Assembly (NCBI GenBank): GCA_964645705.1
Contig: CAZYAB010000003.1
Location: 70,068 to 134,067, forward strand
Origin: an uncultured Methanosarcinales archaeon
Lineage (GTDB): Archaea; Nanobdellota; Nanobdellia; Woesearchaeales; CAXGTL01
Direction: 5' to 3'
DNA: 64,000 nt
This document shows positions 12,477-25,858 of the stretch, in pieces. Numbering within the stretch: the stretch's first letter is position 1; each line of letters begins with the position of its first letter. Under the pieces are notes generated by a model that saw only the letters and a program-made list of their open reading frames with translations, was not told where the DNA came from and did not search any database. Position numbers and translations under genes: made by a program.

Positions 12477-14918
12477 ATGAAGAGATTGGGGGTTTTTGTG
12501 GTGGTTTTTGTGGTTTTTTTTAGTGTGTTTTGCATTGGTGATGATTTTTCTGTTGTTGTGAAATTAAGTGATGAAATTTATACAAATGTTGAATATGATA
12601 AGTTATACACTGTAAAGAATCATGATTGGAGAAGTAATAGAATTATGTCTGATATAGTTGTCAATTATTATTTATTAGATGAATTTGATGAAATTTTACT
12701 AGATGAAGAGCTTGAAATAACTAGTTTAAAAAGTTCAAAAACGTCAAAAACAGGTCTTATCCATCTACAAGAACCTGGTGATTATTATTTTTGTGCTGAA
12801 ATAATTGAAACTTCTTTAGAAGATAATAATCAAGATAATGATCTAGATTGTAAGGAAATAAGTGTTATTGGTTTTGATGATGGTGATGTATTTAATGATT
12901 TTCAAGTAACTGTTGTTTTGAATGATGTTATATTTTCTGAATTAGAATATTATGATCTGTTTAAAATAGAGAATTTAGGTTGGGGTGATTTCAAAATTGA
13001 AACTAATCTCACTATTAATTATTATATATTTGATGAGAATAATGATCTTGTATTCGAAGATGAAACTTTTGTAGAAGGTTTGAAGAGTTCAAAAAAGTCT
13101 AAAACAGGAATTATTTACATAGAGGATGAAGGGAATTATACTTTTTGTGCTGAAATTATTCAAACTTCTTTTGATGATGATAATGAAGAAAATAATCTTA
13201 ATTGTAAAAATATATTAGCAATTGATTCTTCTAATGTTCCTTGTAATATGAGTATTGGCATTGATTCAAAAGATTATTTTTATTCAAATGAGACTAGTTT
13301 CAGATTTGATTTTGTTGTATCTAATGAAGAGTTTTATCCTGATGTTGAGTTTTGGGTTGAAGATATGTTTGGTTATATTGTACAAGATATTGATGAATAT
13401 GAAGTAGATGATAATTATTATGGAAGAATGTATAAATCAAATATTGGTGAAGTGTATGATTATCAAAATATTGTTGTTAAAGCGAATATTACAAAACCTT
13501 GGTGTTATGATTCTGATTATAGTGATAATTTGGCTGAAAAGATGATAGTTGTAAAAAATCCAACATATTATACTTTCCAAGAATATGAAATAAATCCTTA
13601 TATTATAGTTGAAGCAAAAAATAAAGGAACTATTAATTTTGGTGATAGGTTTTATGTTGAAATAGAGGAAGCATGGTCAGGAGATATGTCTGGCAGGATC
13701 AAGATATGGGTTGAGGATAATAAAACTAAGAAAAAAATAAGTGAATCAATTGTTAGCATTGGAATGCCTAAGATGTCTTATATTGAAGATCTTAAGATAC
13801 CTATTGAATTAAAAGATAATTGTGATAGGAAATTTGACGATGGAAATTATTCAATAGTTTATGAAGGGTTTGGGTTTAAGGATAATATTTTTGTAGATGT
13901 TGGAGGAATTGATAATAGAATCTGTAGAAGTGATAATTCTAAAAAGGATTCTTCAATAAGCATTGATAAAGTTAAATATAAATCAGGAGATTATGCAAAA
14001 TTAGGAGAATCAATAAGAGCAGAAGTTAATGTGTATAAAGGTGATACCGGGAAGAGTAGTCTTCGTGCTTATGTTGTTGATGATAGAAATAAAAGAATAA
14101 GTTCTTATGATTCTAAATTCTTGTTAAAAACAAAGTATCAAAAATATGATTTAACAATTCCTATTCAATTAAAACCATTATGCGATGAAAAAACAGATGA
14201 AAGAGATTATACTTTAATTGTTAGAGGTCTTGATCTTGAGACAAAAGAACTAATTGAAATTGATGGCAATTTGCCTACTCTTTGTAAATATCATGACAAG
14301 GATGATGAATCTAATAAAAAGGTGAAAAAAAGAAAAGGCAGTTTTGATGCAGAGTTTGCTTCTTATCCATCTAAGGTAAGAGTTGGTGAATTGTTTTATG
14401 TTGAGGTTAAATTAGAAAATAATAAAGATGAGGATATTGGTGTTGATATTTGGTCAAATATTGTAAAAGGTAGGAAAAAATTTGGTGAAAATAATAAAAA
14501 GAATGTCCAAGTTAAAGAAGGGGAAAGTGTTAATGTTAAATTACTTGGTTCTGTTGATGAAATTGATCCTGGTGAGTATGAACTAAAGGTTGGCATGGAT
14601 AGAAGCGATATAAAAACAAATAAATATTTGAGGGAAAGTATTTTGGTTGAGAGTAGTGAGAAGAATGATACTTGTGTTATTTATCAGGGATTTGCGGCTG
14701 TTTCTGATGTTAATGAAACTTTTGAAACTAAAGTTTTTGAATCAGCTACAACTGATAAATATTCTTATAAATATGATAAAGATATTGAGCAAGTTAAGCC
14801 TGTAACTGGTACTGTTATTTATGAATCATCGACTGTTCGTGCTTCTAAGTTAGTACCTTATATTATTATATTTATGTTGTTAGTGCTTTGTGTTGTGTTG
14901 GTTGTTTGGAAGGTTTAG
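12477..14918 (+). CDS. Large repeat-containing surface protein with signal peptide and C-terminal TM anchor
   Basis: 813 aa with an N-terminal hydrophobic signal. Two ~110-aa repeats share NYY(L/I)(L/F)DE..., LKSSK(T/K)SKTG(L/I)I..., and (Y/T)FCAEII(E/Q)TS. Further beta-sandwich-like repeats follow. The C-terminal helix is LVPYIIIFMLLVLCVVLVVW. Confidence 0.8.
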   Translation: MKRLGVFVVVFVVFFSVFCIGDDFSVVVKLSDEIYTNVEYDKLYTVKNHDWRSNRIMSDIVVNYYLLDEFDEILLDEELEITSLKSSKTSKTGLIHLQEPGDYYFCAEIIETSLEDNNQDNDLDCKEISVIGFDDGDVFNDFQVTVVLNDVIFSELEYYDLFKIENLGWGDFKIETNLTINYYIFDENNDLVFEDETFVEGLKSSKKSKTGIIYIEDEGNYTFCAEIIQTSFDDDNEENNLNCKNILAIDSSNVPCNMSIGIDSKDYFYSNETSFRFDFVVSNEEFYPDVEFWVEDMFGYIVQDIDEYEVDDNYYGRMYKSNIGEVYDYQNIVVKANITKPWCYDSDYSDNLAEKMIVVKNPTYYTFQEYEINPYIIVEAKNKGTINFGDRFYVEIEEAWSGDMSGRIKIWVEDNKTKKKISESIVSIGMPKMSYIEDLKIPIELKDNCDRKFDDGNYSIVYEGFGFKDNIFVDVGGIDNRICRSDNSKKDSSISIDKVKYKSGDYAKLGESIRAEVNVYKGDTGKSSLRAYVVDDRNKRISSYDSKFLLKTKYQKYDLTIPIQLKPLCDEKTDERDYTLIVRGLDLETKELIEIDGNLPTLCKYHDKDDESNKKVKKRKGSFDAEFASYPSKVRVGELFYVEVKLENNKDEDIGVDIWSNIVKGRKKFGENNKKNVQVKEGESVNVKLLGSVDEIDPGEYELKVGMDRSDIKTNKYLRESILVESSEKNDTCVIYQGFAAVSDVNETFETKVFESATTDKYSYKYDKDIEQVKPVTGTVIYESSTVRASKLVPYIIIFMLLVLCVVLVVWKV

Positions 14919-16690
14919 TAAACCTTAAAATCAACACAAACCCTATACACATGAGGTGAGAATTGTCCGCACTTATTGTAATGTATAATTTTGTATTTCT
15001 TTTTTGCTTTTTTGCATGCTTTTTTAATCTTTTTGATAGCTGCATCTGGAATGTCCTTTTCGTTAAGAAAATCATAGAAGTGGATTATTCCTTTTTTCTT
15101 TATTGATTTTAGAGCTAGGTGAAGAAAATCTTCTGCACTTTTTGGCAATGGCATTAAGATTCTGTCAAACTTCCTATGCTTATGCTCAACCTTTACATAG
15201 CTTCTTAACATTTCTGCTGGGTGTGCTTCATCTCTTGATCTTATCTCTGTAACACCCTGGTTTACATAAGGCAATATTCTGTTAAAATCAATATACCCTT
15301 TACCAATTTCTAAAGAATGATGAAAAAGGTCTGAATCATTTAAGTGGAAGTAGGTATTGAAATGTTTTCTCATTACTTTTATGTGATTTTCTATCTTATT
15401 ATTATCTTTGTATGTTTCATATAAATGGCATGTGTCAATGCAAACATTCTTGATTTTAGCTTTTTTATTTACATATAGAACGTCTGGTGTTTTTGAATAA
15501 ACGTCTTTGCTTGAGTTTTCAAAATAAAAATAATCATAATATTGTTTGAACCTTTTTAAGTTGTGTGCAATCACATCTCTTGTCTTTTTTGTTGATTTTT
15601 GATCTTCAAACGGAATATATGGGTGAACAATTGCTTTTATATGGTACTTTTTGCATAATTCACCTAATTTACCAAATACTTTTATCTCAGCAAAGATATC
15701 TTTTTTATGCAATGATAAATATTTGCCTTTGTATTTAAAAGGCATGTGTAATCTTACTGTAATATGTTTTCTCTGTAGATATTGGATTGTTTTTTCTAAT
15801 TTCTTTATACCACTAAACAAATCTGTTTCAAATAAATGCAATTCAACTATCTTAGGATTTAATTTCAATCGAGTTTCTAGTTCTTTTCTTATGTCAGATG
15901 CTTTTAACCCGATTATATGATGATATATGTTTGGAATCACTTTTTTAACATCACCTTTTAGTGCAATGATATTATGTATCTTATTCAATTTTATGTTTTC
16001 TAGAGCATATTTATGAGCAATTGGATTAATTTCTATTGCTGTTATTTCTTTTGCTTTTGTATTCTTTGCAATTGTTAATGGATATGGACAACAGCCTGAA
16101 AACATTACTAGTATTTCTTCATCTGGCTTTATCTGTTTGATGATTCTTTTTCTTTCTGTTGCAAGTCTTACTGAAAAATAGACTTTTTCTACGTCGAACT
16201 TTATGGTCGTATTATTTTCCTTATGTATTGCTTCCTTAGTATTCTTTCCTCCTAGATATTTCAACTTTTGCGTCCTAAATATTCCTTTGTGTTCTCCTGA
16301 TTTCTTAAGAACTGTTTTTATGTTTTTGTTTATTCTTAATAATGTTTTTGCAATTAACTTTTGTTTTTTTACTAATTCTTTATCGATTTCTAGTATTGCT
16401 ATGTTTCCTATTGTGTCATAAGCTGTTTTTAGATGTTGTAATTGTTTTTGTGTTAATTTCTTGTTTAATGCATTTCTCAGGTTTGTCTGTGTTTTTGATT
16501 TTCTTTCTAGTTTTTTGTTTGACTTTTGTATGAACTTGAATTTTGTTTTTATTTTTTTTAAATCTTTTACAGGCAAATACATATATTTCTTATCTTTTGA
16601 AAACTTATAATTAAAATCAAGAAGTTTGTTCTTTACTAAATATCTTTTTACAGATTCTGTTTTTTTAATAGGAATCTTTATTGTGATCAT
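14915..16690 (-). CDS. trm5: tRNA (m1G37) methyltransferase Trm5-like, interrupted by a ~250-aa xylose-isomerase/endonuclease-IV-like TIM-barrel insert
   Basis: Trm5/Met-10 motifs are present (FSVRLATERKR, LVMFSGCCPYPL, AIEINP, then FDRILMPLPKSAEDFL ... IIHFYDF ... YRVCVDF). Between them lies an insert with HMPF, IVHP, YFEN, CIDTCH, FHLNDS and EIGKGYIDF. The start is placed at the ATG at 16688-16690, which overlaps (ATGA) the upstream gene's stop. Confidence 0.8.
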   Translation of the reverse strand: MITIKIPIKKTESVKRYLVKNKLLDFNYKFSKDKKYMYLPVKDLKKIKTKFKFIQKSNKKLERKSKTQTNLRNALNKKLTQKQLQHLKTAYDTIGNIAILEIDKELVKKQKLIAKTLLRINKNIKTVLKKSGEHKGIFRTQKLKYLGGKNTKEAIHKENNTTIKFDVEKVYFSVRLATERKRIIKQIKPDEEILVMFSGCCPYPLTIAKNTKAKEITAIEINPIAHKYALENIKLNKIHNIIALKGDVKKVIPNIYHHIIGLKASDIRKELETRLKLNPKIVELHLFETDLFSGIKKLEKTIQYLQRKHITVRLHMPFKYKGKYLSLHKKDIFAEIKVFGKLGELCKKYHIKAIVHPYIPFEDQKSTKKTRDVIAHNLKRFKQYYDYFYFENSSKDVYSKTPDVLYVNKKAKIKNVCIDTCHLYETYKDNNKIENHIKVMRKHFNTYFHLNDSDLFHHSLEIGKGYIDFNRILPYVNQGVTEIRSRDEAHPAEMLRSYVKVEHKHRKFDRILMPLPKSAEDFLHLALKSIKKKGIIHFYDFLNEKDIPDAAIKKIKKACKKAKKKYKIIHYNKCGQFSPHVYRVCVDFKVY

Positions 16691-17556
16691 ATTGCAACAC
16701 ATACTGCTCCTGCAATCATTATAGCACAACCAATTGCTTTATGAGCTAGGTTATGTTCATGGAATATTTCTCCTCCTGCAATTGTGCTTATTAATGTAGA
16801 CATTCTTTTTATTGGAATTACTAAACTAACATATGCAATGTTAATGGCTTGATAATAAAAATAAGTTGATCCTATGCCGAGCAATGCAATGAATGCTAAT
16901 GAAACACCTGATTGTTTTATTCCATGTTTTATGTCTTTAAACCCTTTATAGAATACAAATGTTATGGATGTGAAAATTATTGCAAAAAATACTTTATATA
17001 TAATTAGAAGCGTATACACATTAACTCCTTGAGTAAGAAGATATTTTTCTAATACTGCACTAACAGCATAGATCATCAATGCAAGTATAACGAATATTGT
17101 ATATTTTGATTTTATTATTTCTTTTAATGGATCTAATAAACTTTTTGCATGATGTTTTAATTCAAGAAAATATGTTCCAAATATTAATAGCAATATTCCA
17201 AACATTTGCAATCCTGTAAGTTTTTCACCTAAGAAGATAAATCCAAGAACTATCAAGAATAAAGGTGATAGGTTTTGTAAAGGAGCAACATTTGATAATT
17301 CCATGTGTTTTAGTGCTTTTACCGATAATATTCCTCCTATTGCACAAATAAGTGCTGCTCCAAATATCATAAAATAATATTTTAAAGCAAAATCAAAATT
17401 AGTTTTTTGAATAAATGCTAATGAAAATATTGCGCCAAATATTGACATCACTGTTAAAAATTCTGCAGCGTGTTCTTTTAATAAGGCTTTTTTTGCATAA
17501 ATCTGTTCAAGTGAAACTAAAATTGCTGATATTATGACAAGTATTATCCAATTCAT
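16687..17556 (-). CDS. EamA/DMT-family permease
   Basis: 289 aa, about 10 hydrophobic helices in two similar halves. Confidence 0.75.
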   Translation of the reverse strand: MNWIILVIISAILVSLEQIYAKKALLKEHAAEFLTVMSIFGAIFSLAFIQKTNFDFALKYYFMIFGAALICAIGGILSVKALKHMELSNVAPLQNLSPLFLIVLGFIFLGEKLTGLQMFGILLLIFGTYFLELKHHAKSLLDPLKEIIKSKYTIFVILALMIYAVSAVLEKYLLTQGVNVYTLLIIYKVFFAIIFTSITFVFYKGFKDIKHGIKQSGVSLAFIALLGIGSTYFYYQAINIAYVSLVIPIKRMSTLISTIAGGEIFHEHNLAHKAIGCAIMIAGAVCVAI

Positions 17557-17675: not shown

Positions 17676-17930
17676 ATGAATATAACAAAGAAAATTGTAA
17701 TAGGAGTTAGCATTATTGTGTTTATTATTCTTATTGTTTATTTAGTAAAGATGAGTGTTTTTACGTATGATACTGTGAATACAGGACATGTTAAGGTTGA
17801 TTGTAAATTTAGGCAAGGAGTTTGTTTAACACCAATAAATGGAGAATGTCCTCCTTTTGATTTTTCTTATAAAACAATAGAAAATACTGATTGTGAAGCA
17901 CAAGATAAGGTATGTTGTGTTAAAAATTAA
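17676..17930 (+). CDS. Small membrane-anchored/secreted six-cysteine protein
   Basis: 84 aa with an N-terminal hydrophobic helix. The C-terminal half has the pattern C-x6-C-x7-C-x14-C-x6-CC. Confidence 0.55.
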   Translation: MNITKKIVIGVSIIVFIILIVYLVKMSVFTYDTVNTGHVKVDCKFRQGVCLTPINGECPPFDFSYKTIENTDCEAQDKVCCVKN

Positions 17931-19077: not shown

Positions 19078-20277
19078 TTATTCTTTACTTTCTTTTACCA
19101 ACCAATAACATATAATCCCTGGTATGAGTAATACAGAAGATAACATTATTACATATCTTGGGCCTATTGTATCAACTAAAAAACCTGCTATTGGCATTGA
19201 GATTATTGCTGCTAATGAGTGAAGCATTGATTTAATAGAACCAATTGTTGCTCTAAGTTTTTTTATTATAAATCTATGAAAGTACACATTTTCAACAGGT
19301 GTTTTTATTTCAAGAAAGAATTCTCCTAATAGCATAATACCTAAGGCAATTGCCCAGGTTTTTGCAAAGTATACTAAGAAATTGAATAATCCTGCTATTA
19401 TGATAATTCTGATGATAAATGATTTTTCTTTGTTTTTTGGTAATAATCTTTTTGATAATAATGGTGAAATGATTGTCACTCCCCACATTGCTGACCACAT
19501 ATAACCAAATGCATGATCTGGAAAATTTAGTTCTTGTAAAAATGGAATCCAACTTAATCCTTCGCCAAATGCTCCTGCAAATGCAAGAAAAAACATTCCC
19601 AGTAATATATAAAATAATGCTGGATGTGTTGAACTGTATTTTACTGATGTTTTTGTCTGGTTTACTAGTTCTTTGTATGATTGTTTAATATGTATCTTCT
19701 TTTTTTTGTAATTTTCTGGTATAAATAATAAGATAAAGATGCTAACTAAGAATGCTATGCCTGATGTTGGGAACACTATCCATAAACCAAAGTTCTTTAC
19801 AAGAAATGCTCCTAATAATCCAGATATAACCAAGCCAATGCTTAACAAACTTCTGCTTTTCATAAAATAATCATGTAATAATGATGGTTTTTTTGCTTTT
19901 ATCCAGTCTGTTACCCATGCTTCTTTTGCACCTGATGCAAATGTGACTGCTATTCCTGTTAAAATGAATACTAATAATGCAGAAGGAAATGTTTTTGCAA
20001 ATAATAAAGCCACAATCAAGATTGCTTCAAGAGAATGTCCTAATATGACTGAGAACTTTCTTCCATATATGTCTGCAACTGCACCTGTTGGTATTTCAAA
20101 TATTAATACTGATAAAGCTGTTGCAGCTATTAGTGTTCCTATCTGCGTTAGTGAGAAGTTAAGGTCTCTGAACCAGACTATAATAAAGACTGGTGCTACT
20201 TGAAGCATGAATGCTAGTACATGTTCTAGGTAGAATAATCCGCATATTTCTAGTTCTCTTTTTTCAAATATTTGCAT
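19078..20277 (-). CDS. MFS transporter
   Basis: 399 aa, polytopic, with MFS motif A (GAVADIYGRKF). It is the last gene of the rSAM operon. Confidence 0.85.
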   Translation of the reverse strand: MQIFEKRELEICGLFYLEHVLAFMLQVAPVFIIVWFRDLNFSLTQIGTLIAATALSVLIFEIPTGAVADIYGRKFSVILGHSLEAILIVALLFAKTFPSALLVFILTGIAVTFASGAKEAWVTDWIKAKKPSLLHDYFMKSRSLLSIGLVISGLLGAFLVKNFGLWIVFPTSGIAFLVSIFILLFIPENYKKKKIHIKQSYKELVNQTKTSVKYSSTHPALFYILLGMFFLAFAGAFGEGLSWIPFLQELNFPDHAFGYMWSAMWGVTIISPLLSKRLLPKNKEKSFIIRIIIIAGLFNFLVYFAKTWAIALGIMLLGEFFLEIKTPVENVYFHRFIIKKLRATIGSIKSMLHSLAAIISMPIAGFLVDTIGPRYVIMLSSVLLIPGIICYWLVKESKE

Positions 20278-20293
20278 AGAATTATTTTATGTT

Positions 20294-21073
20294 TTATAAT
20301 ATATAAATCATTCTATCTTCTTGGGTCTGATGAACTATAGGTTCTATTAATCTATTTACCACAAATTCTAATTCTCTTAATTTTCTTTCATTTAACATTG
20401 TTTTTGGGTTTGTAGATCCTGGAGTAAAACCTTTATTATTAATCCCAAAACTCTCAGCAACATTATAAAAGAATATTCTAGACACATCCATATATTCTGG
20501 AAAAAATCTTTTCCATTCATCATAAGTAAAACTACTTCTTAAAGAATTTTCAAACAATCTTTTATTTTGCTCATCATAATGTCCTGCTAAATATCCTAAA
20601 AACAATCTTTGTAAAATATCTTCACTTGCAGGCCTAATCAAATCCCTAATAAAAATTCCTCCGTCTGGTTTAACAACTCTCAAAATTTCATTAATTGTTT
20701 TTCTTGGATCTTCTAAATGATGTAGTAATGAATGACACATGACCAAATCAAAACTTTCAGACTCGTAGGGCAGATTATTAGAATCACCAACCTCATACAT
20801 GGTTTGAGGATCTTGTTTCTTAGCATATTCAATTAACCTTTCATCAATATCTAAACCATACAATTCATAACCTTGTATTTGATCCTCATCTTCCCTTATT
20901 TGTCTTAACATTTTTCCAGTTCCACATCCAATATCTAATATTTTACCAAATGAACACAATTCTAAAGCTCTATTCAAGAAATAATCATTTACTAAATCAA
21001 GAGTTTTTAAATTATCATAAGCTAACATTATGTCTACATCTCCCATATCATCCATTTCTAGTATTCTTTTCAT
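20294..21073 (-). CDS. Class I SAM-dependent methyltransferase
   Basis: ILDIGCGTGKM (motif I), GLDIDE, FDLVMCHSLLHHL and VKPDGGIF. It overlaps the rSAM gene by 4 nt. Confidence 0.85.
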   Translation of the reverse strand: MKRILEMDDMGDVDIMLAYDNLKTLDLVNDYFLNRALELCSFGKILDIGCGTGKMLRQIREDEDQIQGYELYGLDIDERLIEYAKKQDPQTMYEVGDSNNLPYESESFDLVMCHSLLHHLEDPRKTINEILRVVKPDGGIFIRDLIRPASEDILQRLFLGYLAGHYDEQNKRLFENSLRSSFTYDEWKRFFPEYMDVSRIFFYNVAESFGINNKGFTPGSTNPKTMLNERKLRELEFVVNRLIEPIVHQTQEDRMIYIL

Positions 21074-22128
21074 GATGCAATACCCTCTTTGTTAATTCTT
21101 TCAACACAATATGGATCATTATTTGTTGATCCAGTAAGTGCTTCACTTATTATTGGACAACCACCCCTGCAAATTTCACCAAATTCACATTCAGAACAAA
21201 ACCCTTTTAGGCAAGATTTAGTAAATTTTCTATTATAAGGAAAAGCATTTTTGTTATTCCAAATGTCTTTTAATGATTTATCATTTAAATTGCCTTCAAT
21301 AAATTTATCTTTCATAGCAAGACAACCTTTTATAGAACCATTACTCATTATTCCTATCTCAAAAATCCCAGAATAACAACCAGTCCAAAATGGTAAAGAA
21401 TTTTCTTCTTTTTGGATTCTATATTTTTCTTCAAATCCACCAAAATATCCTACATTACACCCTGGATAGATTCTAACTTTCTTTTCCTTATTCTTCTCAA
21501 TAATAAATTCTATAAGTTTTCTCAAATCCTTTTTAGGGATCATAAAATCAGAACTCATTCTTCCAACAGGCATTGCTAATTGTATTTGCCAGACTTCAAC
21601 ACATAATTTTACAATTATATTATAAATTTCATCTAATTCCAGAAAATTAAATTTAGAAACAGTTGTCGCAATGCTTATTTTGATTCCATTTGACTTTAAT
21701 CTTTTAATAGTATTAATTATCTTATCAAAAACTCCTTTTCCTCTTATAGAGTCATTTGTTTCTTTTTTACCATCAATGCTTATTCCAAAATTATTTATTT
21801 TTGCTTTTTTTAGTTTACTAATAACTTCATCATTCATAATAGTTCCATTTGAAACAAAATTAACTTTTATTCCTAATTCATTCAATCTTTTAGAAACAGG
21901 AAACCACCTATCAGAAATCAAGGGTTCACCACCTATTAAAGTTACTTCTTTAGTTCCCAGTTCTTTTAGTTCATCACATAATTTCAGAGACCTATCTAAT
22001 GAAAGTTCATTTTTTCTACACTTTCCTGCAGATGAGCCACAATGTTTACAATTTAAATTACATGCTAATGTTAGTTCCCATGTAATATTGATAGGCTGCA
22101 ATCTAGAAGAATCTATTATTTCTTTCAT
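21070..22128 (-). CDS. Radical SAM enzyme with a C-terminal SPASM-type auxiliary Fe-S domain
   Basis: CNLNCKHC (CX3CX2C) at residues 23-30, and GGEPL. The C-terminus reads GCYSG...GSIKGC...GNL...IW...CSECEFGEICRGGCP...DPYC. Confidence 0.9.
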   Translation of the reverse strand: MKEIIDSSRLQPINITWELTLACNLNCKHCGSSAGKCRKNELSLDRSLKLCDELKELGTKEVTLIGGEPLISDRWFPVSKRLNELGIKVNFVSNGTIMNDEVISKLKKAKINNFGISIDGKKETNDSIRGKGVFDKIINTIKRLKSNGIKISIATTVSKFNFLELDEIYNIIVKLCVEVWQIQLAMPVGRMSSDFMIPKKDLRKLIEFIIEKNKEKKVRIYPGCNVGYFGGFEEKYRIQKEENSLPFWTGCYSGIFEIGIMSNGSIKGCLAMKDKFIEGNLNDKSLKDIWNNKNAFPYNRKFTKSCLKGFCSECEFGEICRGGCPIISEALTGSTNNDPYCVERINKEGIAS

Positions 22129-22141
22129 GTTTTCTAGATCT

Positions 22142-22264
22142 CTATATTCTCAAATCACTTCTGCATGAATAGATGCTTGAAAAACCAGCCAAAACTAAGC
22201 TTGCTCCACATTTTCCTTTAGCTAGCTTTTCAGCTACTCTTTGTTTTATTTGTTTGGCTTTCAT
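22142..22264 (-). CDS. Unannotated 40-aa peptide, candidate precursor/substrate of the downstream rSAM/SPASM enzyme
   Basis: Hand translation gives MKAKQIKQRVAEKLAKGKCGASLVLAGFSSIYSCRSDLRI*. The stop lies 13 nt before the rSAM ATG, and a TATA-like box lies ~26 nt upstream of its ATG. It is below the 60-aa threshold of the track. Confidence 0.45.
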   Translation of the reverse strand: MKAKQIKQRVAEKLAKGKCGASLVLAGFSSIYSCRSDLRI

Positions 22265-22286
22265 ACATAATAGGATAGTAATTTAA

Positions 22287-22295
22287 ATATATAAA
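22287..22295 (-). promoter_or_regulatory. TATA-box candidate for the peptide-rSAM operon (leaderless or short-leader mRNA)
   Basis: The minus strand reads TTTATATAT, centred ~26 nt upstream of the ATG at 22264. Confidence 0.35.
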
Positions 22296-22331
22296 CAATT
22301 GTTGTGGAAATTCTACTACAATATAGAAATA

Positions 22332-22340
22332 TTTATATAT
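22332..22340 (+). promoter_or_regulatory. TATA-box candidate for the divergent TrmB-family regulator
   Basis: TTTATATAT centred ~28 nt upstream of the ATG at 22364. Confidence 0.35.
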
Positions 22341-22363
22341 AATAATCAACTATAATATTCAAT

Positions 22364-23089
22364 ATGATCTCAAAACAAGAAGTATTAAAAGAATTAGGTT
22401 TGAATAACAAAGAAGTTTCAGTCTATGTATCATTACTTATGCTAGGCCAATCACCTGTTAATATAATAGCTAAAAAATCCAAATTAAATAGAGTAACTAC
22501 TTATGATATCTTAAAATCATTATTAGATAAAGGCTATGTATCATATGTAATAAAATCGGGTGTCAAATATTTTGAGGCAACAAATCCATCAATATTCATG
22601 CATAATCTTAAAGAAAAACAGAGTAAATTAAGGAAAGTTCTCCCTGAATTGAAAGCAATAAAAAGATCAATTAGAAGAAAGCCAAGTATTGAGATGTATG
22701 AAGAAATAAAGGGTTTAAAGTCTATATTTAATGATATTCTTAAGGAAAATAAAGAAACATGGTTTATTGGTGCCCCCAAGATGATAGGTAAGTTAAAATT
22801 TTATTTTCCTCATTTTATTAAACAAAAAAGAAAACAAAACATGTTTTCAAGAGTTATAACAACTGATTGCAGATCAATGAGAAAATATAAAAGAAAAGCT
22901 CCTAAAAAATATATTGGTATGAGATTTATTAACGATAAAATTAATACAACCAAAATTATTTATGAAAATAAGATTGCTTATTTAACGTTTAAAGATAAGA
23001 ATTCAATAGGAATAATAATTGATAATAAAGAGATTGCTAAACAAGAAAAAGCATTGTTTAATATATTATGGAAAAATTCTAAGAAATAA
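22364..23089 (+). CDS. TrmB-family winged-helix transcriptional regulator
   Basis: The N-terminus LGLNNKEVSVYVSLLMLGQSPVNIIAKKSKLNRVTTYDILKSLLDKGYV is typical of the TrmB HTH. Confidence 0.8.
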   Translation: MISKQEVLKELGLNNKEVSVYVSLLMLGQSPVNIIAKKSKLNRVTTYDILKSLLDKGYVSYVIKSGVKYFEATNPSIFMHNLKEKQSKLRKVLPELKAIKRSIRRKPSIEMYEEIKGLKSIFNDILKENKETWFIGAPKMIGKLKFYFPHFIKQKRKQNMFSRVITTDCRSMRKYKRKAPKKYIGMRFINDKINTTKIIYENKIAYLTFKDKNSIGIIIDNKEIAKQEKALFNILWKNSKK

Positions 23090-23091
23090 AA

Positions 23092-24237
23092 TCATTCTAT
23101 CTTCTTAACAACCAAACCTTTAAACTCTTTGTTAAGCATTTGTTCAGCTTTTTTAGTAACTTTACCAAGAGATAAATAAATTACAGGAAGTTTTTTGTTC
23201 TGACCTTTAATATATGCAGTTGAAAGATCACCTTCATTAGATCTCTTTTTCTTCTTAGCACAACAATAATAATCAACTGAACCAATTGCTGCAGGCACAG
23301 AAACAACTAAATCAATTTCACCTTTTTTAATTATTTCATAGTCTTTTATCTTCATTCCATTTGATTTCATGTATTCTCTTACTTGTACAAAGAATGCATC
23401 TTTTTCTTTTTCTACTCTTTCAGAGATAGGGACAATCTTTTTCTGAACTGCGGGTTTTATAGGTTCTTTACCTGTTTTTAATCTTTCTAGTTTTACTCTT
23501 TCCTGTCTAATCTCTTCCATCATTTGCATTAGTTCATTTCTTTGCTTTTTCATTTCTCTTTGTTGTTCTGAGAACAATTTTCTTTGCTTTTCTAGTTCTT
23601 TGTGTTCTTGTTCAATCTTTAGATGAAGCTCTTTTTCTAATTCCTTTTTCTCTTTTAATAACTCTTTTTCTTTTTTTTCTATTTCTTTCTTTTTTTCTAA
23701 GATGTCTTGTTTTTTACCAGGTTCTTCAATTTCTCTTTTAACAGGTTCTTTTTTCTTTTCTATTTTGAGTTTTTCCACTTTTCTCTTTGGTTTTGGAGCT
23801 AACATTTCTTTTATCAAACTTTGCGCTTGATTATTATCAAGCATATAAAATTTCCAGAAAATATGTTTTTGATTCTTAAAATTAACAACAAGTGAAACTG
23901 CAAAATCTTTTAAATTTCTAAGAGTTGCTTTTGTCATATTGTCTAATTTACTTTCTCTTAATATTCTTTTTTGTTTTAATAAATCAAATATTCTTTTTTC
24001 ATTATTATTCAGTTTGTCAGAGAATTCTTGCAATTTCTCTTTTTGAGAATCAACATAATATAATGGTGAACTACCTATTTTTAAATGGCTAAATTTGATC
24101 TTTTTCTTAGAAACTAATTCTGATAAATATGCGCCTGCATATGTAGTATTTATTTTGAAATGTTTTGCTACTTTAATTGATAACAAAGGGCCATTTTTTT
24201 GTACAAAATCCAAAACATCGTCTGGTGTCAATACCAT
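23092..24237 (-). CDS. Hypothetical protein: two winged-helix-like modules, a K/E coiled coil and a C-terminal PD-(D/E)XK-like module
   Basis: 381 aa. It contains ~120 aa of EKK/KEL heptad-like low complexity. The C-terminus reads GEIDLVVSV...YYCCAKKKK. Domain calls are tentative. Confidence 0.6.
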   Translation of the reverse strand: MVLTPDDVLDFVQKNGPLLSIKVAKHFKINTTYAGAYLSELVSKKKIKFSHLKIGSSPLYYVDSQKEKLQEFSDKLNNNEKRIFDLLKQKRILRESKLDNMTKATLRNLKDFAVSLVVNFKNQKHIFWKFYMLDNNQAQSLIKEMLAPKPKRKVEKLKIEKKKEPVKREIEEPGKKQDILEKKKEIEKKEKELLKEKKELEKELHLKIEQEHKELEKQRKLFSEQQREMKKQRNELMQMMEEIRQERVKLERLKTGKEPIKPAVQKKIVPISERVEKEKDAFFVQVREYMKSNGMKIKDYEIIKKGEIDLVVSVPAAIGSVDYYCCAKKKKRSNEGDLSTAYIKGQNKKLPVIYLSLGKVTKKAEQMLNKEFKGLVVKKIE

Positions 24238-24285: not shown

Positions 24286-24903
24286 CTAAGGTCTTTTCCA
24301 AGCAACTTCCCAGTAAGTAACATCGCCTTCTTCGTCAACTACGCCAATAAGAAGTCTTTTCTTTGTACTGTGTGCTACTCTGTTTTTAGCTGAGAAATCA
24401 TGCCATGTTAATGTAGAACCCTCATGAACAGGGAATACAACCCATTTGGCATGGTCTTCGCCAGGTTTAATACCTCTATCATAAACTCTGAAATCTGCAC
24501 CAAACTTAAGAGCAGTTTTGATTATATAGCCTCTGTTTCTGAAATCTCTGAATACGCAATATCTGATCCAAAAATTAGGTTCTGTTTTTTGTGCTTTTTT
24601 TATGAATTTTTCACCTGATATTGGTTTGTTTCTCCCATCTAAGATAACCATCTTACCTTTTTCTGATAAATATAATGCTTCACAAAGTGATAATTGTACT
24701 TTTTTATCGTCAAGAATCTTTCCATAGCAACTTTTATTATAAAGTTCTCTTGCTTCATCAGTGTCTTCTGATATAACTCTTTCTTTTGCAAAAATTGATC
24801 TAATAGGTTCTTTTTTTGGTTTGTTTTCTAGATCTTTGTCTTTTTTGTCCTGTTTTGCTATTTTTTCTTCTTTTGATTTCTTTTCTTTTTTCTTTTTAGC
24901 CAT
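24286..24903 (-). CDS. endA: tRNA-splicing endonuclease
   Basis: LSLCEALYL...FWIRYCVFRDFRNRGYIIKTALKFGADFRVY...HAKWVV, with a Lys-rich N-terminal extension. Confidence 0.85.
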   Translation of the reverse strand: MAKKKKEKKSKEEKIAKQDKKDKDLENKPKKEPIRSIFAKERVISEDTDEARELYNKSCYGKILDDKKVQLSLCEALYLSEKGKMVILDGRNKPISGEKFIKKAQKTEPNFWIRYCVFRDFRNRGYIIKTALKFGADFRVYDRGIKPGEDHAKWVVFPVHEGSTLTWHDFSAKNRVAHSTKKRLLIGVVDEEGDVTYWEVAWKRP

Positions 24904-24958
24904 ATTAGTAGTAAAAAAGGGGGATAAATTTAAAAAGCTTTCTATAGTAATATACTAT

Positions 24959-25858
24959 ATGCAATTAACATTTTTAGGAACATCGTGTATGGTGCCAACT
25001 AAAGAAAGAAATGTACCAGGAGTTTTTCTTAAATATAAGTCTGAAGGAATATTATTTGATTGTGGTGAAGGAACACAAAGACAGATGAATATTACAGGAA
25101 TCAATAGAAACAAAGTTACAATGATTCTTTTAACGCATTGGCATGGTGATCATGTTGCAGGTATAATTGGTTTGTTGCAAACAATGGGTAATAGAGAGTT
25201 TAATCCTAAAGTTGAGATCTTTGGACCAAAAGGCACAAAAAAAAGATTGTGTTTGTTAATGGATGCTATACATTTTGACGTCATGATTAGGTTGAAGGTT
25301 CATGATATTGATGCTAAAAAGCCTGAAGCAATATTTAATTGTAAAGATTTTAAGATAATAGCAGCTAATATGAAGCACAATGTTCCATGCGTAGCTTATT
25401 CATTTATTGAAAAAGACAGAAAAAATATTGATAAATCATTTTTAGAAAAAAATAAAATAAAAGACGGGCCGCATCTTAAGAAATTAAGTGCTGGAAAAGA
25501 TATTGTGTACAAAGGTAAGAAGTATAAAGCACAAGATGCTACTTATATTATCAAAGGTAAAAAGATTAGTTATGTTGTAGATACAGAAGTTTGTAATAAT
25601 GCAATTGAATTAGCAAGAGATTCTGATATATTGATATGTGAATCAACATATTCATCTAAGTTAAGAGATAAAGCAGAACAAAGAAAGCACATGACATCAA
25701 AAGATGCAGCAATGATTGCTAATCAAGCTAATGTCAAAAAGTTAATATTGACACATTTTTCTCAAAGATATAAAAACACTTTAGAATTACAAGAGGATGC
25801 ACAAACTTATTTTGATAATGTTATTTGTGCTGAAGATTTTATGAAGATTAGTTTGTGA
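24959..25858 (+). CDS. rnz: Ribonuclease Z (tRNA 3' processing, metallo-beta-lactamase)
   Basis: MQLTFLGTS..., and the LTHWHGDHVAG (HxHxDH) motif. The start is moved to the ATG at 24959, because the track's extension is antisense to endA. Confidence 0.9.
   Translation: MQLTFLGTSCMVPTKERNVPGVFLKYKSEGILFDCGEGTQRQMNITGINRNKVTMILLTHWHGDHVAGIIGLLQTMGNREFNPKVEIFGPKGTKKRLCLLMDAIHFDVMIRLKVHDIDAKKPEAIFNCKDFKIIAANMKHNVPCVAYSFIEKDRKNIDKSFLEKNKIKDGPHLKKLSAGKDIVYKGKKYKAQDATYIIKGKKISYVVDTEVCNNAIELARDSDILICESTYSSKLRDKAEQRKHMTSKDAAMIANQANVKKLILTHFSQRYKNTLELQEDAQTYFDNVICAEDFMKISL

Follow-up and report, generated by a model that had tools for sequence, protein, structure and literature searches.

Radical S-adenosylmethionine (SAM) enzymes introduce different bonds into peptides that are made by ribosomes and modified after translation (RiPPs): SuiB makes the Lys-Trp cross-link of streptide, CteB and SkfB form thioethers, and PqqE joins Glu to Tyr through a C-C bond. 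A Tyr is also carried by the precursors of both pyrroloquinoline quinone (PQQ) and mycofactocin. The SPASM domain found in such enzymes has the motif CX9-15GX4C ... CX2CX5CX3C ... C, which holds two auxiliary clusters, and some thioether-forming enzymes (CteB) have an open site on an auxiliary cluster. In streptococci, radical SAM-RiPP (RaS-RiPP) operons are under shp/rgg control. Methylation of RiPPs is exemplified by LahSB, which acts on the C-terminal carboxyl of a lanthipeptide, and by BamL/BpumL, which dimethylate the N terminus of plantazolicin. Here, we analyze a locus that recalls these systems in a 64-kb stretch of archaeal DNA (contig CAZYAB010000003.1), hereafter the window. It comprises a gene for a 40-residue peptide, a radical SAM/SPASM gene, a methyltransferase gene and, on the other strand, a gene for a TrmB-like regulator.

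Very few archaeal RiPP products have been characterized (PMC12144867), and DPANN archaea encode very few biosynthetic clusters (bioRxiv 10.64898/2026.04.17.719132). The original prediction, which read the locus as a peptide modification and export system of the sactipeptide/ranthipeptide type, held such a system to be unexpected in a reduced DPANN-like archaeon. This surprise is lessened by a genome-mining survey (221 clusters) that already lists RiPP clusters, including radical SAM types, in DPANN/Nanoarchaeota (PMC12144867). Within the limited literature set that we searched, there was no paper on this peptide family or cassette and no characterized archaeal radical SAM-modified peptide. As detailed below, we consider it likely that the four genes form a self-contained, lineage-restricted RiPP-like cassette with its own dedicated methyltransferase and divergent TrmB-like regulator.

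The short open reading frame is a conserved gene

Short open reading frames (ORFs) are plentiful in this DNA, with 64 of at least 30 codons, mostly spurious, in 8.5 kb. An ORF of 40 codons is therefore by itself within what chance provides, and comparative evidence has to decide. Pfam gives no match for its product. The downstream radical SAM/SPASM enzyme has ~20 clusters of close orthologues at 60-81% identity, after which identity drops sharply to 46% or less. We fetched DNA for part of these close clusters, which provided upstream sequence for 11 distinct orthologous loci. An ORF of the same family, 39-48 residues long, lies upstream of the enzyme gene in all 11, at a distance of 7-43 nucleotides (nt) or, in one locus (L179), overlapping it.

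Codon comparison among ten orthologues shows where selection has acted. Over the whole ORF, differences at first, second and third codon positions number 467, 258 and 864, respectively, with 550 synonymous and 602 nonsynonymous codon pairs. In a 12-codon block over the core motif (see below), the corresponding counts are 49, 9 and 245, with 235 synonymous vs 35 nonsynonymous pairs, and this excess at third positions shows selection on the amino-acid sequence of the peptide. Moreover, a Shine-Dalgarno (SD)-like GGAGGT or AGGTGA is found 6-10 nt before the peptide ATG in 7 of the 10 orthologues. The window gene is without such a site and instead has a TATA box at leaderless distance. The gene callers of several public assembly pipelines have also called the ORF independently.

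Together, conservation, codon-position pattern and ribosome-binding sites indicate that the 40-codon ORF is a real, translated gene under purifying selection. The idea that AT-rich intergenic DNA has produced the ORF by chance, with which the abundance of spurious 30-60-codon ORFs in the window would agree, is already refuted by the conserved frame, length and start, the 245:9 ratio of third- to second-position differences in the core, the SD-like sites and the independent gene calls, and its probability is close to nil. The locus thus has what is generally expected of a RiPP locus, a precursor gene that is adjacent to and co-conserved with the enzyme gene and is under purifying selection.

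Conservation of the peptide centers on its core

In the peptides, a charged, helical N-terminal part, which is a putative leader, precedes a hydrophobic core, and the C-terminal tail varies. Their consensus reads M-x-A-K-x-I-K-x-x-V-A-E-K-L-A-x-G-K-C-G-A-S-L-V-L-A-G-F-S-S-I-Y-A-C-R-x-x-L-R, followed by a tail of 0-9 residues. The invariant family core, F-[SA]-S-[IV]-Y-[AS]-C-[RK], is retained even in the most divergent members (P0248-P0252), which came from searching 1.84 billion representative proteins with a profile and include the forms ...GKSGASLVLASFSSIYACR..., ...GKSIEGLVLPSFSSIYACR..., ...NRSVSGIVLAGFSSIYACR... and ...NCGANLVLSGFASIYSCK... The original prediction described a two-Cys peptide. 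This is correct for the window copy but not for the family: every member has Cys34, but Cys19 is dispensable, other residues taking its place in L083/P0251, P0248 and P0250.

The family is small. Searches with the peptide returned seven clusters in 5.8 billion proteins and five clusters in the 1.84 billion representatives, with no wider family. Six-frame translations of all fetched loci, searched with a regular expression, gave no peptide motif beside radical SAM homologues of 45% identity or less, and a degenerate DNA pattern for the core motif, run against GTDB genomes, hit solely the contig of locus L001 and one "Methanosarcinales" contig, which falls into the DPANN clade of L167 and is thus probably mis-binned. 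Hence, in protein searches and fetched loci alike, the peptide family is confined to this enzyme clade. Judging from this distribution, the cassette is restricted to a small clade of DPANN (Nanoarchaeota-type) archaea.

Two further observations concern the peptide family. An 8.4-kb contig labeled uncultured Methanosarcinales (L176, CAYZMD010000062.1) carries a complete cassette, its peptide being identical to that of L167/L168 and its TrmB-like protein to that of L168. Most likely, this contig comes from a DPANN archaeon and was wrongly binned into a Methanosarcinales metagenome-assembled genome (MAG). We also considered whether the charged N-region, the hydrophobic stretch and the lipobox-like I-Y-A-C might form a lipoprotein signal. 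This was set aside: the N-region is both acidic and basic and is helical, and no more than 5-6 residues would be left for the mature part.

The enzyme resembles peptide maturases

The product of the downstream gene is clearly a radical SAM protein with a SPASM domain. Both Pfam profiles score above their cut-offs, PF04055 with 90 bits (cut-off 29.5) over a C23-x3-C27-x2-C30 motif of the kind that binds the SAM-cleaving [4Fe-4S] cluster, and PF13186 with 28.2 bits (cut-off 21.5) over a SPASM region with Cys residues at positions 251, 269, 311, 314, 320, 324 and 341. The first SPASM spacing, 17 residues, is slightly above the textbook range, while the GX4C part is intact. All three radical SAM Cys and all seven SPASM Cys are invariant in an alignment of 47 homologues. 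In addition, position 224 is Cys in 16/16 close-clade members, and the other 31 homologues have Asp, His or Cys there. Because it is restricted to metal-ligating residues, residue 224 is a probable eighth cluster ligand, and the auxiliary clusters may be fully ligated. A C-x-H-C-G-S-S-A-G stretch following the SAM-cluster Cys (window residues 29-35) is likewise conserved in the 47 homologues (H29, S32, A34 and G35 invariant, G31 nearly so) and may be a signature of an uncurated radical SAM/SPASM superfamily. The AlphaFold2 (AF2) model of the enzyme has a pLDDT of 92, and its barrel, modeled at pLDDT >90, begins at residue 14. This early start and the Pfam results confirm the earlier view that the enzyme has no RiPP recognition element (RRE) domain.

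We placed the enzyme by ranking its scores against curated NCBIfam models. Two predicted peptide-maturase families come first: TIGR04103 (nif11-class peptide maturase 3), with 241 bits vs a cut-off of 725 (residues 16-345), and TIGR03913 (GDL-motif peptide-associated maturase), with 220 bits vs 592 (residues 6-345). AhbD is third (182 bits vs 500). NirJ2 (153 vs 500), MftC (141 vs 265), NirJ (136 vs 515) and PqqE (90 vs 381) score lower, while StsB (NF045574, 109 vs 625) and SkfB (TIGR04403, 98 vs 300) match over the radical SAM core only. The enzyme is a member of neither the AhbD/NirJ nor the mycofactocin/PQQ families and falls short of the sactipeptide maturase models. The same two models are on top for ten further homologues, none of which reaches a cut-off, the orthologue P0012 giving this picture too, and the surrounding superfamily (2,944 hits) is uncurated. 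Among solved structures, the nearest by sequence are SkfB (4.7e-22), CteB (8.6e-14), SuiB (3.8e-11) and PqqE (7e-11), at 19-25% identity. Foldseek with the AF2 model ranks SuiB, SkfB, PqqE and anSME first, with TM-scores of 0.67-0.75 for the RiPP maturases and 0.69 for anSME.

These rankings bear on a different reading, in which the enzyme acts on a cofactor intermediate, like AhbD/NirJ, or on another protein, like anSME, and the small ORF encodes an unrelated protein or is a regulatory upstream ORF. The AhbD, NirJ and tungsten-cofactor maturase models do give significant partial scores, anSME is among the top fold matches, and AhbD and anSME are likewise without an RRE. However, the cofactor models score far under their cut-offs and below the peptide-maturase models, and no heme, sulfatase or cofactor genes are found among the called neighbors of the cassettes. 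Nor does the peptide contain the sulfatase motif C/S-x-P/A-x-R. Instead, peptide family and enzyme clade are equally narrow in their distribution, their genes always lie side by side, and the strongest conservation is in the C-terminal core of the peptide, unlike in a typical regulatory upstream ORF. We therefore consider this reading very improbable. By profile score, the enzyme does not fall into a cofactor-biosynthesis family, and each orthologue with upstream sequence has the peptide gene before it, so that neither of these two outcomes that would have spoken against the original prediction has occurred.

Sister clades of the enzyme, at 38-45% identity, also adjoin small ORFs. In a high-GC metagenome contig (L087), a 62-aa ORF with a Nif11-like leader and a Gly-rich end (…VVYGDGGGGGNVGVA; 170-358) lies directly upstream of a 38%-identical radical SAM/SPASM gene (548-1615) and is another uncurated peptide-maturase pair. 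In L171, a 60-codon ORF is found with an ATP-binding cassette transporter and an O-methyltransferase near a sister-clade enzyme. A different, recurrent cassette with two radical SAM genes is seen in L169 (3080-6107) and L173 (2399-6107), where 42-44%-identical homologues come directly after, and overlap, a Band_7 (SPFH)-radical SAM-SPASM fusion of 649-884 aa and are followed by two conserved ORFs with no Pfam match. For the enzyme of the window, its relatives and its gene context together point to peptide substrates.

A dedicated methyltransferase completes a constant cassette

The methyltransferase has ~28 clusters of orthologues that are 48-75% identical to the window protein, beyond which identity falls to at most 41% and alignments are only partial. 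In the two outgroup loci inspected, the gene contexts are unrelated and contain no radical SAM neighbor. The C-terminal half of the protein (RDLxRP...YDExNKRLFENSLRSSF...FFYN) is particular to the cassette. On these comparisons, the methyltransferase is specific to the cassette. The best match among solved structures is LahSB by sequence (1.4e-14) and BpumL by fold (8.6e-13; BpumL/BamL), relatives from RiPP and natural-product pathways that would fit a RiPP picture without proving it.

Gene order is constant in every orthologous locus. The divergent TrmB-like gene is followed by the peptide, radical SAM/SPASM and methyltransferase genes, the last two of which overlap or abut, bearing out in all loci the coupling that the original prediction proposed for the window. 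The flanks, by contrast, vary and include an M3 peptidase gene on the other strand and genes for diphthamide synthase, a HAD hydrolase, arginase and toxin-antitoxin systems. Since the four genes stay intact across divergent members despite these changing flanks, they must be useful to the archaea that carry them. Beside the cassette of L083 (1-2113), the adjoining gene encodes a DNA gyrase/topoisomerase A subunit that is split by a pair of inteins, of which one contains a LAGLIDADG domain. PADLOC returned generic matches only (viperin models on the radical SAM core, CasR on the helix-turn-helix), and we rejected a defense system.

The major facilitator superfamily (MFS) gene that follows the methyltransferase gene, taken by the original prediction for the exporter of the system, behaves differently from the four genes. 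It is present in the window only: in none of the six orthologous cassettes with known genes downstream (L081, L082, L083, L164, L165 and L166) does an MFS gene follow. Its own promoter could be a TTTATATA-like box that precedes the MFS ATG by ~25-32 nt and falls inside the 3' end of the methyltransferase gene. The MFS gene is thus probably a neighbor that is incidental to the system, with some room left for transcriptional read-through into it, there being no T-run between the two genes.

This has consequences for the idea that the locus makes a sactipeptide/ranthipeptide-type antimicrobial, with thioethers at two Cys, methylation and export by the adjoining MFS pump. In its favor are the 16-nt gap before the MFS gene with no T-run terminator, the presence of the thioether-forming SkfB and CteB among the nearest solved relatives and the two Cys of the window peptide. 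But Cys19 is not conserved in the family, the pump is missing from the orthologous cassettes and has its own TATA-like box, there is neither an RRE nor a conserved leader protease, and the StsB and SkfB models score low. Having one invariant Cys, no RRE and low maturase scores, the system cannot be assigned to the sactipeptide/ranthipeptide class as the original prediction had it, and an exported antimicrobial of this kind seems to us improbable.

A TrmB-like regulator and a candidate operator accompany the cassette

The divergent gene encodes a protein with the N-terminal winged-helix domain that defines the TrmB family (PF01978, 52 bits vs a cut-off of 25.6). The match to TrmB in the Protein Data Bank (3qph, 2.5e-6) covers the N-terminal 115 residues only, and the sugar-binding C-terminal domain of TrmB proper was not detected in the 241-aa protein. 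A TrmB-like protein of 236-241 aa, 58-68% identical to the window copy, is encoded in every orthologous locus. It is never separated from the cassette, and its mean column identity is 79%.

The intergenic region is organized symmetrically. Two identical TTTATATA boxes lie on opposite strands, each the same short distance before its ATG, which implies a leaderless or very short-leadered transcript for the TrmB-like gene. Orthologous intergenic regions have CTATATAAAT at the position of the TrmB-side TATA box and GTTTAAAT directly after a palindrome, on the peptide side. The second half-site of this palindrome is CTACAACA in most orthologues, and the window copy has two mismatches to the search pattern TTGTAGTAG-N5-CTACAACA. 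Even so, it is the sole match in the window, where 0.01 is expected by chance. Among the 176 fetched loci, the palindrome reappears in the orthologous ones, at the corresponding intergenic site, and in no other place. Given this position and conservation, the palindrome is a candidate operator of the TrmB-like protein, placed so that it could control both promoters.

The unusually well-conserved regulator, which always accompanies the cassette, also fits a scheme in which a product that stays in the cell, rather than a secreted one, is built on the peptide as scaffold, either a PQQ/mycofactocin-like redox cofactor or a ligand of the TrmB-like regulator in an autoregulatory loop. Several further features agree with this. 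The conserved cassette contains no exporter or protease, the core has an invariant Tyr, as is the case for PQQ and mycofactocin precursors, scores with the mycofactocin and PqqE models are clear but subthreshold (141 and 90 bits), and PqqE is among the top fold matches. Against it, no PQQ/mycofactocin-type oxidoreductases, peptidase or RRE chaperone are conserved nearby, which is an argument from absence on small, fragmentary MAG contigs. Moreover, the presumed modified residues are not C-terminal, and the C-terminal tail is variable. We regard a scaffold role as unlikely, albeit less so than an exported antimicrobial.

Layout of the locus and its surroundings

The ORF list and the raw letters of the window, which has a G+C content of ~29-30%, were rechecked. 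The ORFs, spacings, gene overlap, Cys motifs, TATA-like boxes and divergent TrmB gene of the original prediction were all recovered (Table 1).

Table 1. Features of the cassette and the adjoining transporter gene, in the numbering of the 64-kb window
Feature	Position	Strand	Remarks
TrmB-family winged-helix regulator, 241 aa	22364-23089	+	PF01978 4.9e-14, residues 8-75; divergent; cassette member
TATA-like box TTTATATA for TrmB-like gene	22332-22339	+	ends 24 nt before ATG
Conserved imperfect palindrome TTGTAGTAG-N5-CCACAACA	22300-22321		between both TATA boxes; candidate operator
TATA-like box TTTATATA for peptide operon	22288-22295 (22295->22288)	-	ends 24 nt before peptide ATG
Putative precursor peptide gene, 40 aa, MKAKQIKQRVAEKLAKGKCGASLVLAGFSSIYSCRSDLRI	22142-22264	-	stop 13 nt before radical SAM ATG
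Core motif A-G-F-S-S-I-Y-S-C-R, peptide residues 26-35	22160-22189	-	presumed modification site
Radical SAM/SPASM enzyme, 352 aa	21070-22128	-	PF04055 2.4e-25; PF13186 2.3e-6
Class I SAM methyltransferase, 259 aa	20294-21073	-	Methyltransf_11 3e-24; 4-nt overlap (ATGA) with radical SAM gene
MFS transporter, 399 aa	19078-20277	-	MFS_1 1.6e-28; 16-nt gap after methyltransferase gene

Pfam assigns archaeal housekeeping functions to the neighboring genes of the window (FEN1, tRNA-splicing endonuclease, RNase Z and Trm5/Taw2), and the closest relatives come from MAGs labeled Nanoarchaeota or Micrarchaeota. Both facts show that the DPANN setting is right. Rfam and tRNA scans of the window gave no match.

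Some other ORFs of the window deserve mention. A 604-aa ORF (14915-16729, minus strand) combines Trm5_N, TYW2_N_2 and TRM5-TYW2_MTfase with a C-terminal AP_endonuc_2 domain (a xylose-isomerase-like TIM barrel), apparently an unusual fusion. Beside FEN1, an 84-aa ORF (17676-17930, plus strand) with an N-terminal hydrophobic segment, six Cys in its C-terminal half and no Pfam match may encode a small secreted Cys-rich protein. Two longer ORFs are also without a Pfam match, one of 813 aa (12477-14918, plus strand) and one of 381 aa with a long Lys/Glu-rich middle (23092-24237, minus strand). Finally, the RNase Z ORF as called (24761-25858, plus strand) begins at a GTG that overlaps the opposite-strand tRNA-splicing endonuclease gene (24286-24903). 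Its true start is probably an internal Met (about MQLTFLGTS), because the Pfam match begins near residue 77.

A proposed peptide-modifying pathway

Since the four-gene unit remains intact across the clade, it very probably serves to produce a chemically modified peptide. A possible sequence of events is as follows. The TrmB-like protein would bind the palindrome and gate both promoters. The charged helical N-terminal half of the peptide would be the recognition handle, which, in the absence of an RRE domain, the enzyme would have to bind directly. The enzyme would cleave SAM reductively at the C23/C27/C30 cluster, and the resulting 5'-deoxyadenosyl radical would abstract hydrogen from the invariant F-S-S-I-Y-A-C-R core. 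As the new bond forms, the two SPASM auxiliary clusters would accept the electron. The most likely single outcome would be a cross-link through Cys34 (a thioether to a nearby carbon) or through Tyr32/Phe28 (an aromatic one). The methyltransferase would then methylate the modified peptide. With neither a protease nor an exporter kept alongside these genes, the product may work intracellularly or rely on general machinery, so that a cofactor-like or regulatory peptide within the cell is a serious alternative to a secreted antimicrobial.

Several points weigh against a RiPP-like cassette. To begin with, all of its chemistry is inference. The enzyme reaches the cut-off of no curated family, and no RRE domain or protein was detected (there is no PqqD-type Pfam match in any cassette protein, and the enzyme model starts with the barrel). 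In contrast to classical bacteriocin-type RiPP loci, no leader protease or exporter is conserved in the cassette neighborhoods. Sactipeptide and ranthipeptide cores usually have several donor Cys, and the peptide family here has one invariant Cys, at which a single thioether may still form. The auxiliary clusters probably receive their last ligand from residue 224, so that the open-site mechanism of sactisynthases is not indicated. Lastly, the fold matches of the methyltransferase do not separate small-molecule, lipid and peptide substrates.

A bolder version of the RiPP-like cassette is a new RiPP class in a single DPANN clade, in which an RRE-less radical SAM/SPASM enzyme installs an undescribed cross-link on the core and the methyltransferase adds a cap. 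Its product would be an intracellular cofactor-like or signaling peptide sensed by the TrmB-like regulator, or else a factor in the interaction between symbiont and host. We offer this as a tentative idea, which is on the whole rather unlikely to hold in full.

The genomes of DPANN archaea are very small and contain few biosynthetic clusters. The unit found here, a 40-residue peptide and two enzymes, is small enough for direct testing. The possible gains are a new peptide cross-link, a radical SAM/SPASM enzyme that recognizes its peptide without an RRE and the first TrmB-family regulator tied to peptide modification. Should the product be an ordinary thioether peptide, it would be one more family in a large and growing catalog. 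Pairs of radical SAM enzymes and peptides abound in metagenomes, and no observation made here conflicts with current understanding.

Comparison with known systems

Set beside the cofactor and sulfatase systems, the enzyme shares with anSME and AhbD/NirJ its size, the lack of an RRE and a full SPASM domain. It is nevertheless not an anSME since the peptide has Y-[AS]-C-R-x-x-[LI]-R without Pro/Ala at +2 and there is no linked sulfatase, and it differs from AhbD/NirJ in having no linked heme genes and a dedicated, conserved peptide gene. The mycofactocin and PQQ pathways also differ, as the precursor here is unlike the C-terminal Val-Tyr or Glu...Tyr type and no MftB/PqqD-like chaperone is present.

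The methyltransferase is most similar in sequence to LahSB and in fold to BamL/BpumL. However, this similarity lies mostly in the common Rossmann core (17-22% identity, TM-scores of ~0.5-0.6), and RebM, Coq5 and CouO match nearly as well.

The resemblance to streptococcal RaS-RiPP operons is one of layout, a divergent helix-turn-helix regulator lying beside a short precursor gene and a radical SAM gene. The regulator is Rgg in one and TrmB-like in the other, the two occur in different domains of life, and the streptococcal operons usually have a transporter and enzymes with an RRE. No signaling peptide gene is evident in the archaeal locus.

SuiB, CteB, SkfB and PqqE have in common with the enzyme a partial TIM barrel, a C-terminal auxiliary-cluster domain and a short peptide substrate encoded adjacently. 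By comparison, the ~100-residue N-terminal RRE of SuiB, CteB and SkfB is missing here, the separate PqqD that goes with PqqE has no counterpart in the cassette, and the core F-S-S-I-Y-A-C-R matches no substrate of these four enzymes.

Closest are TIGR04103 and TIGR03913, two families that, to our knowledge, have not been characterized biochemically; a full-text search for TIGR04103 and a search for DVU_1556 found no papers. Alignment with them is near full length, the size and the SPASM motif are the same, and in each case the enzyme gene is next to that of a short peptide. The differences are that the scores are ~1/3 of the cut-offs and that the peptide here is unrelated, lacking both the Nif11 leader and the GDL motif, while the cassette has a methyltransferase and a TrmB regulator of its own. 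Taken together, and as far as sequence comparison can tell, the best reading is that the cassette works like a radical SAM-dependent RiPP pathway, rather than being a demonstrated member of the sactipeptides or ranthipeptides.

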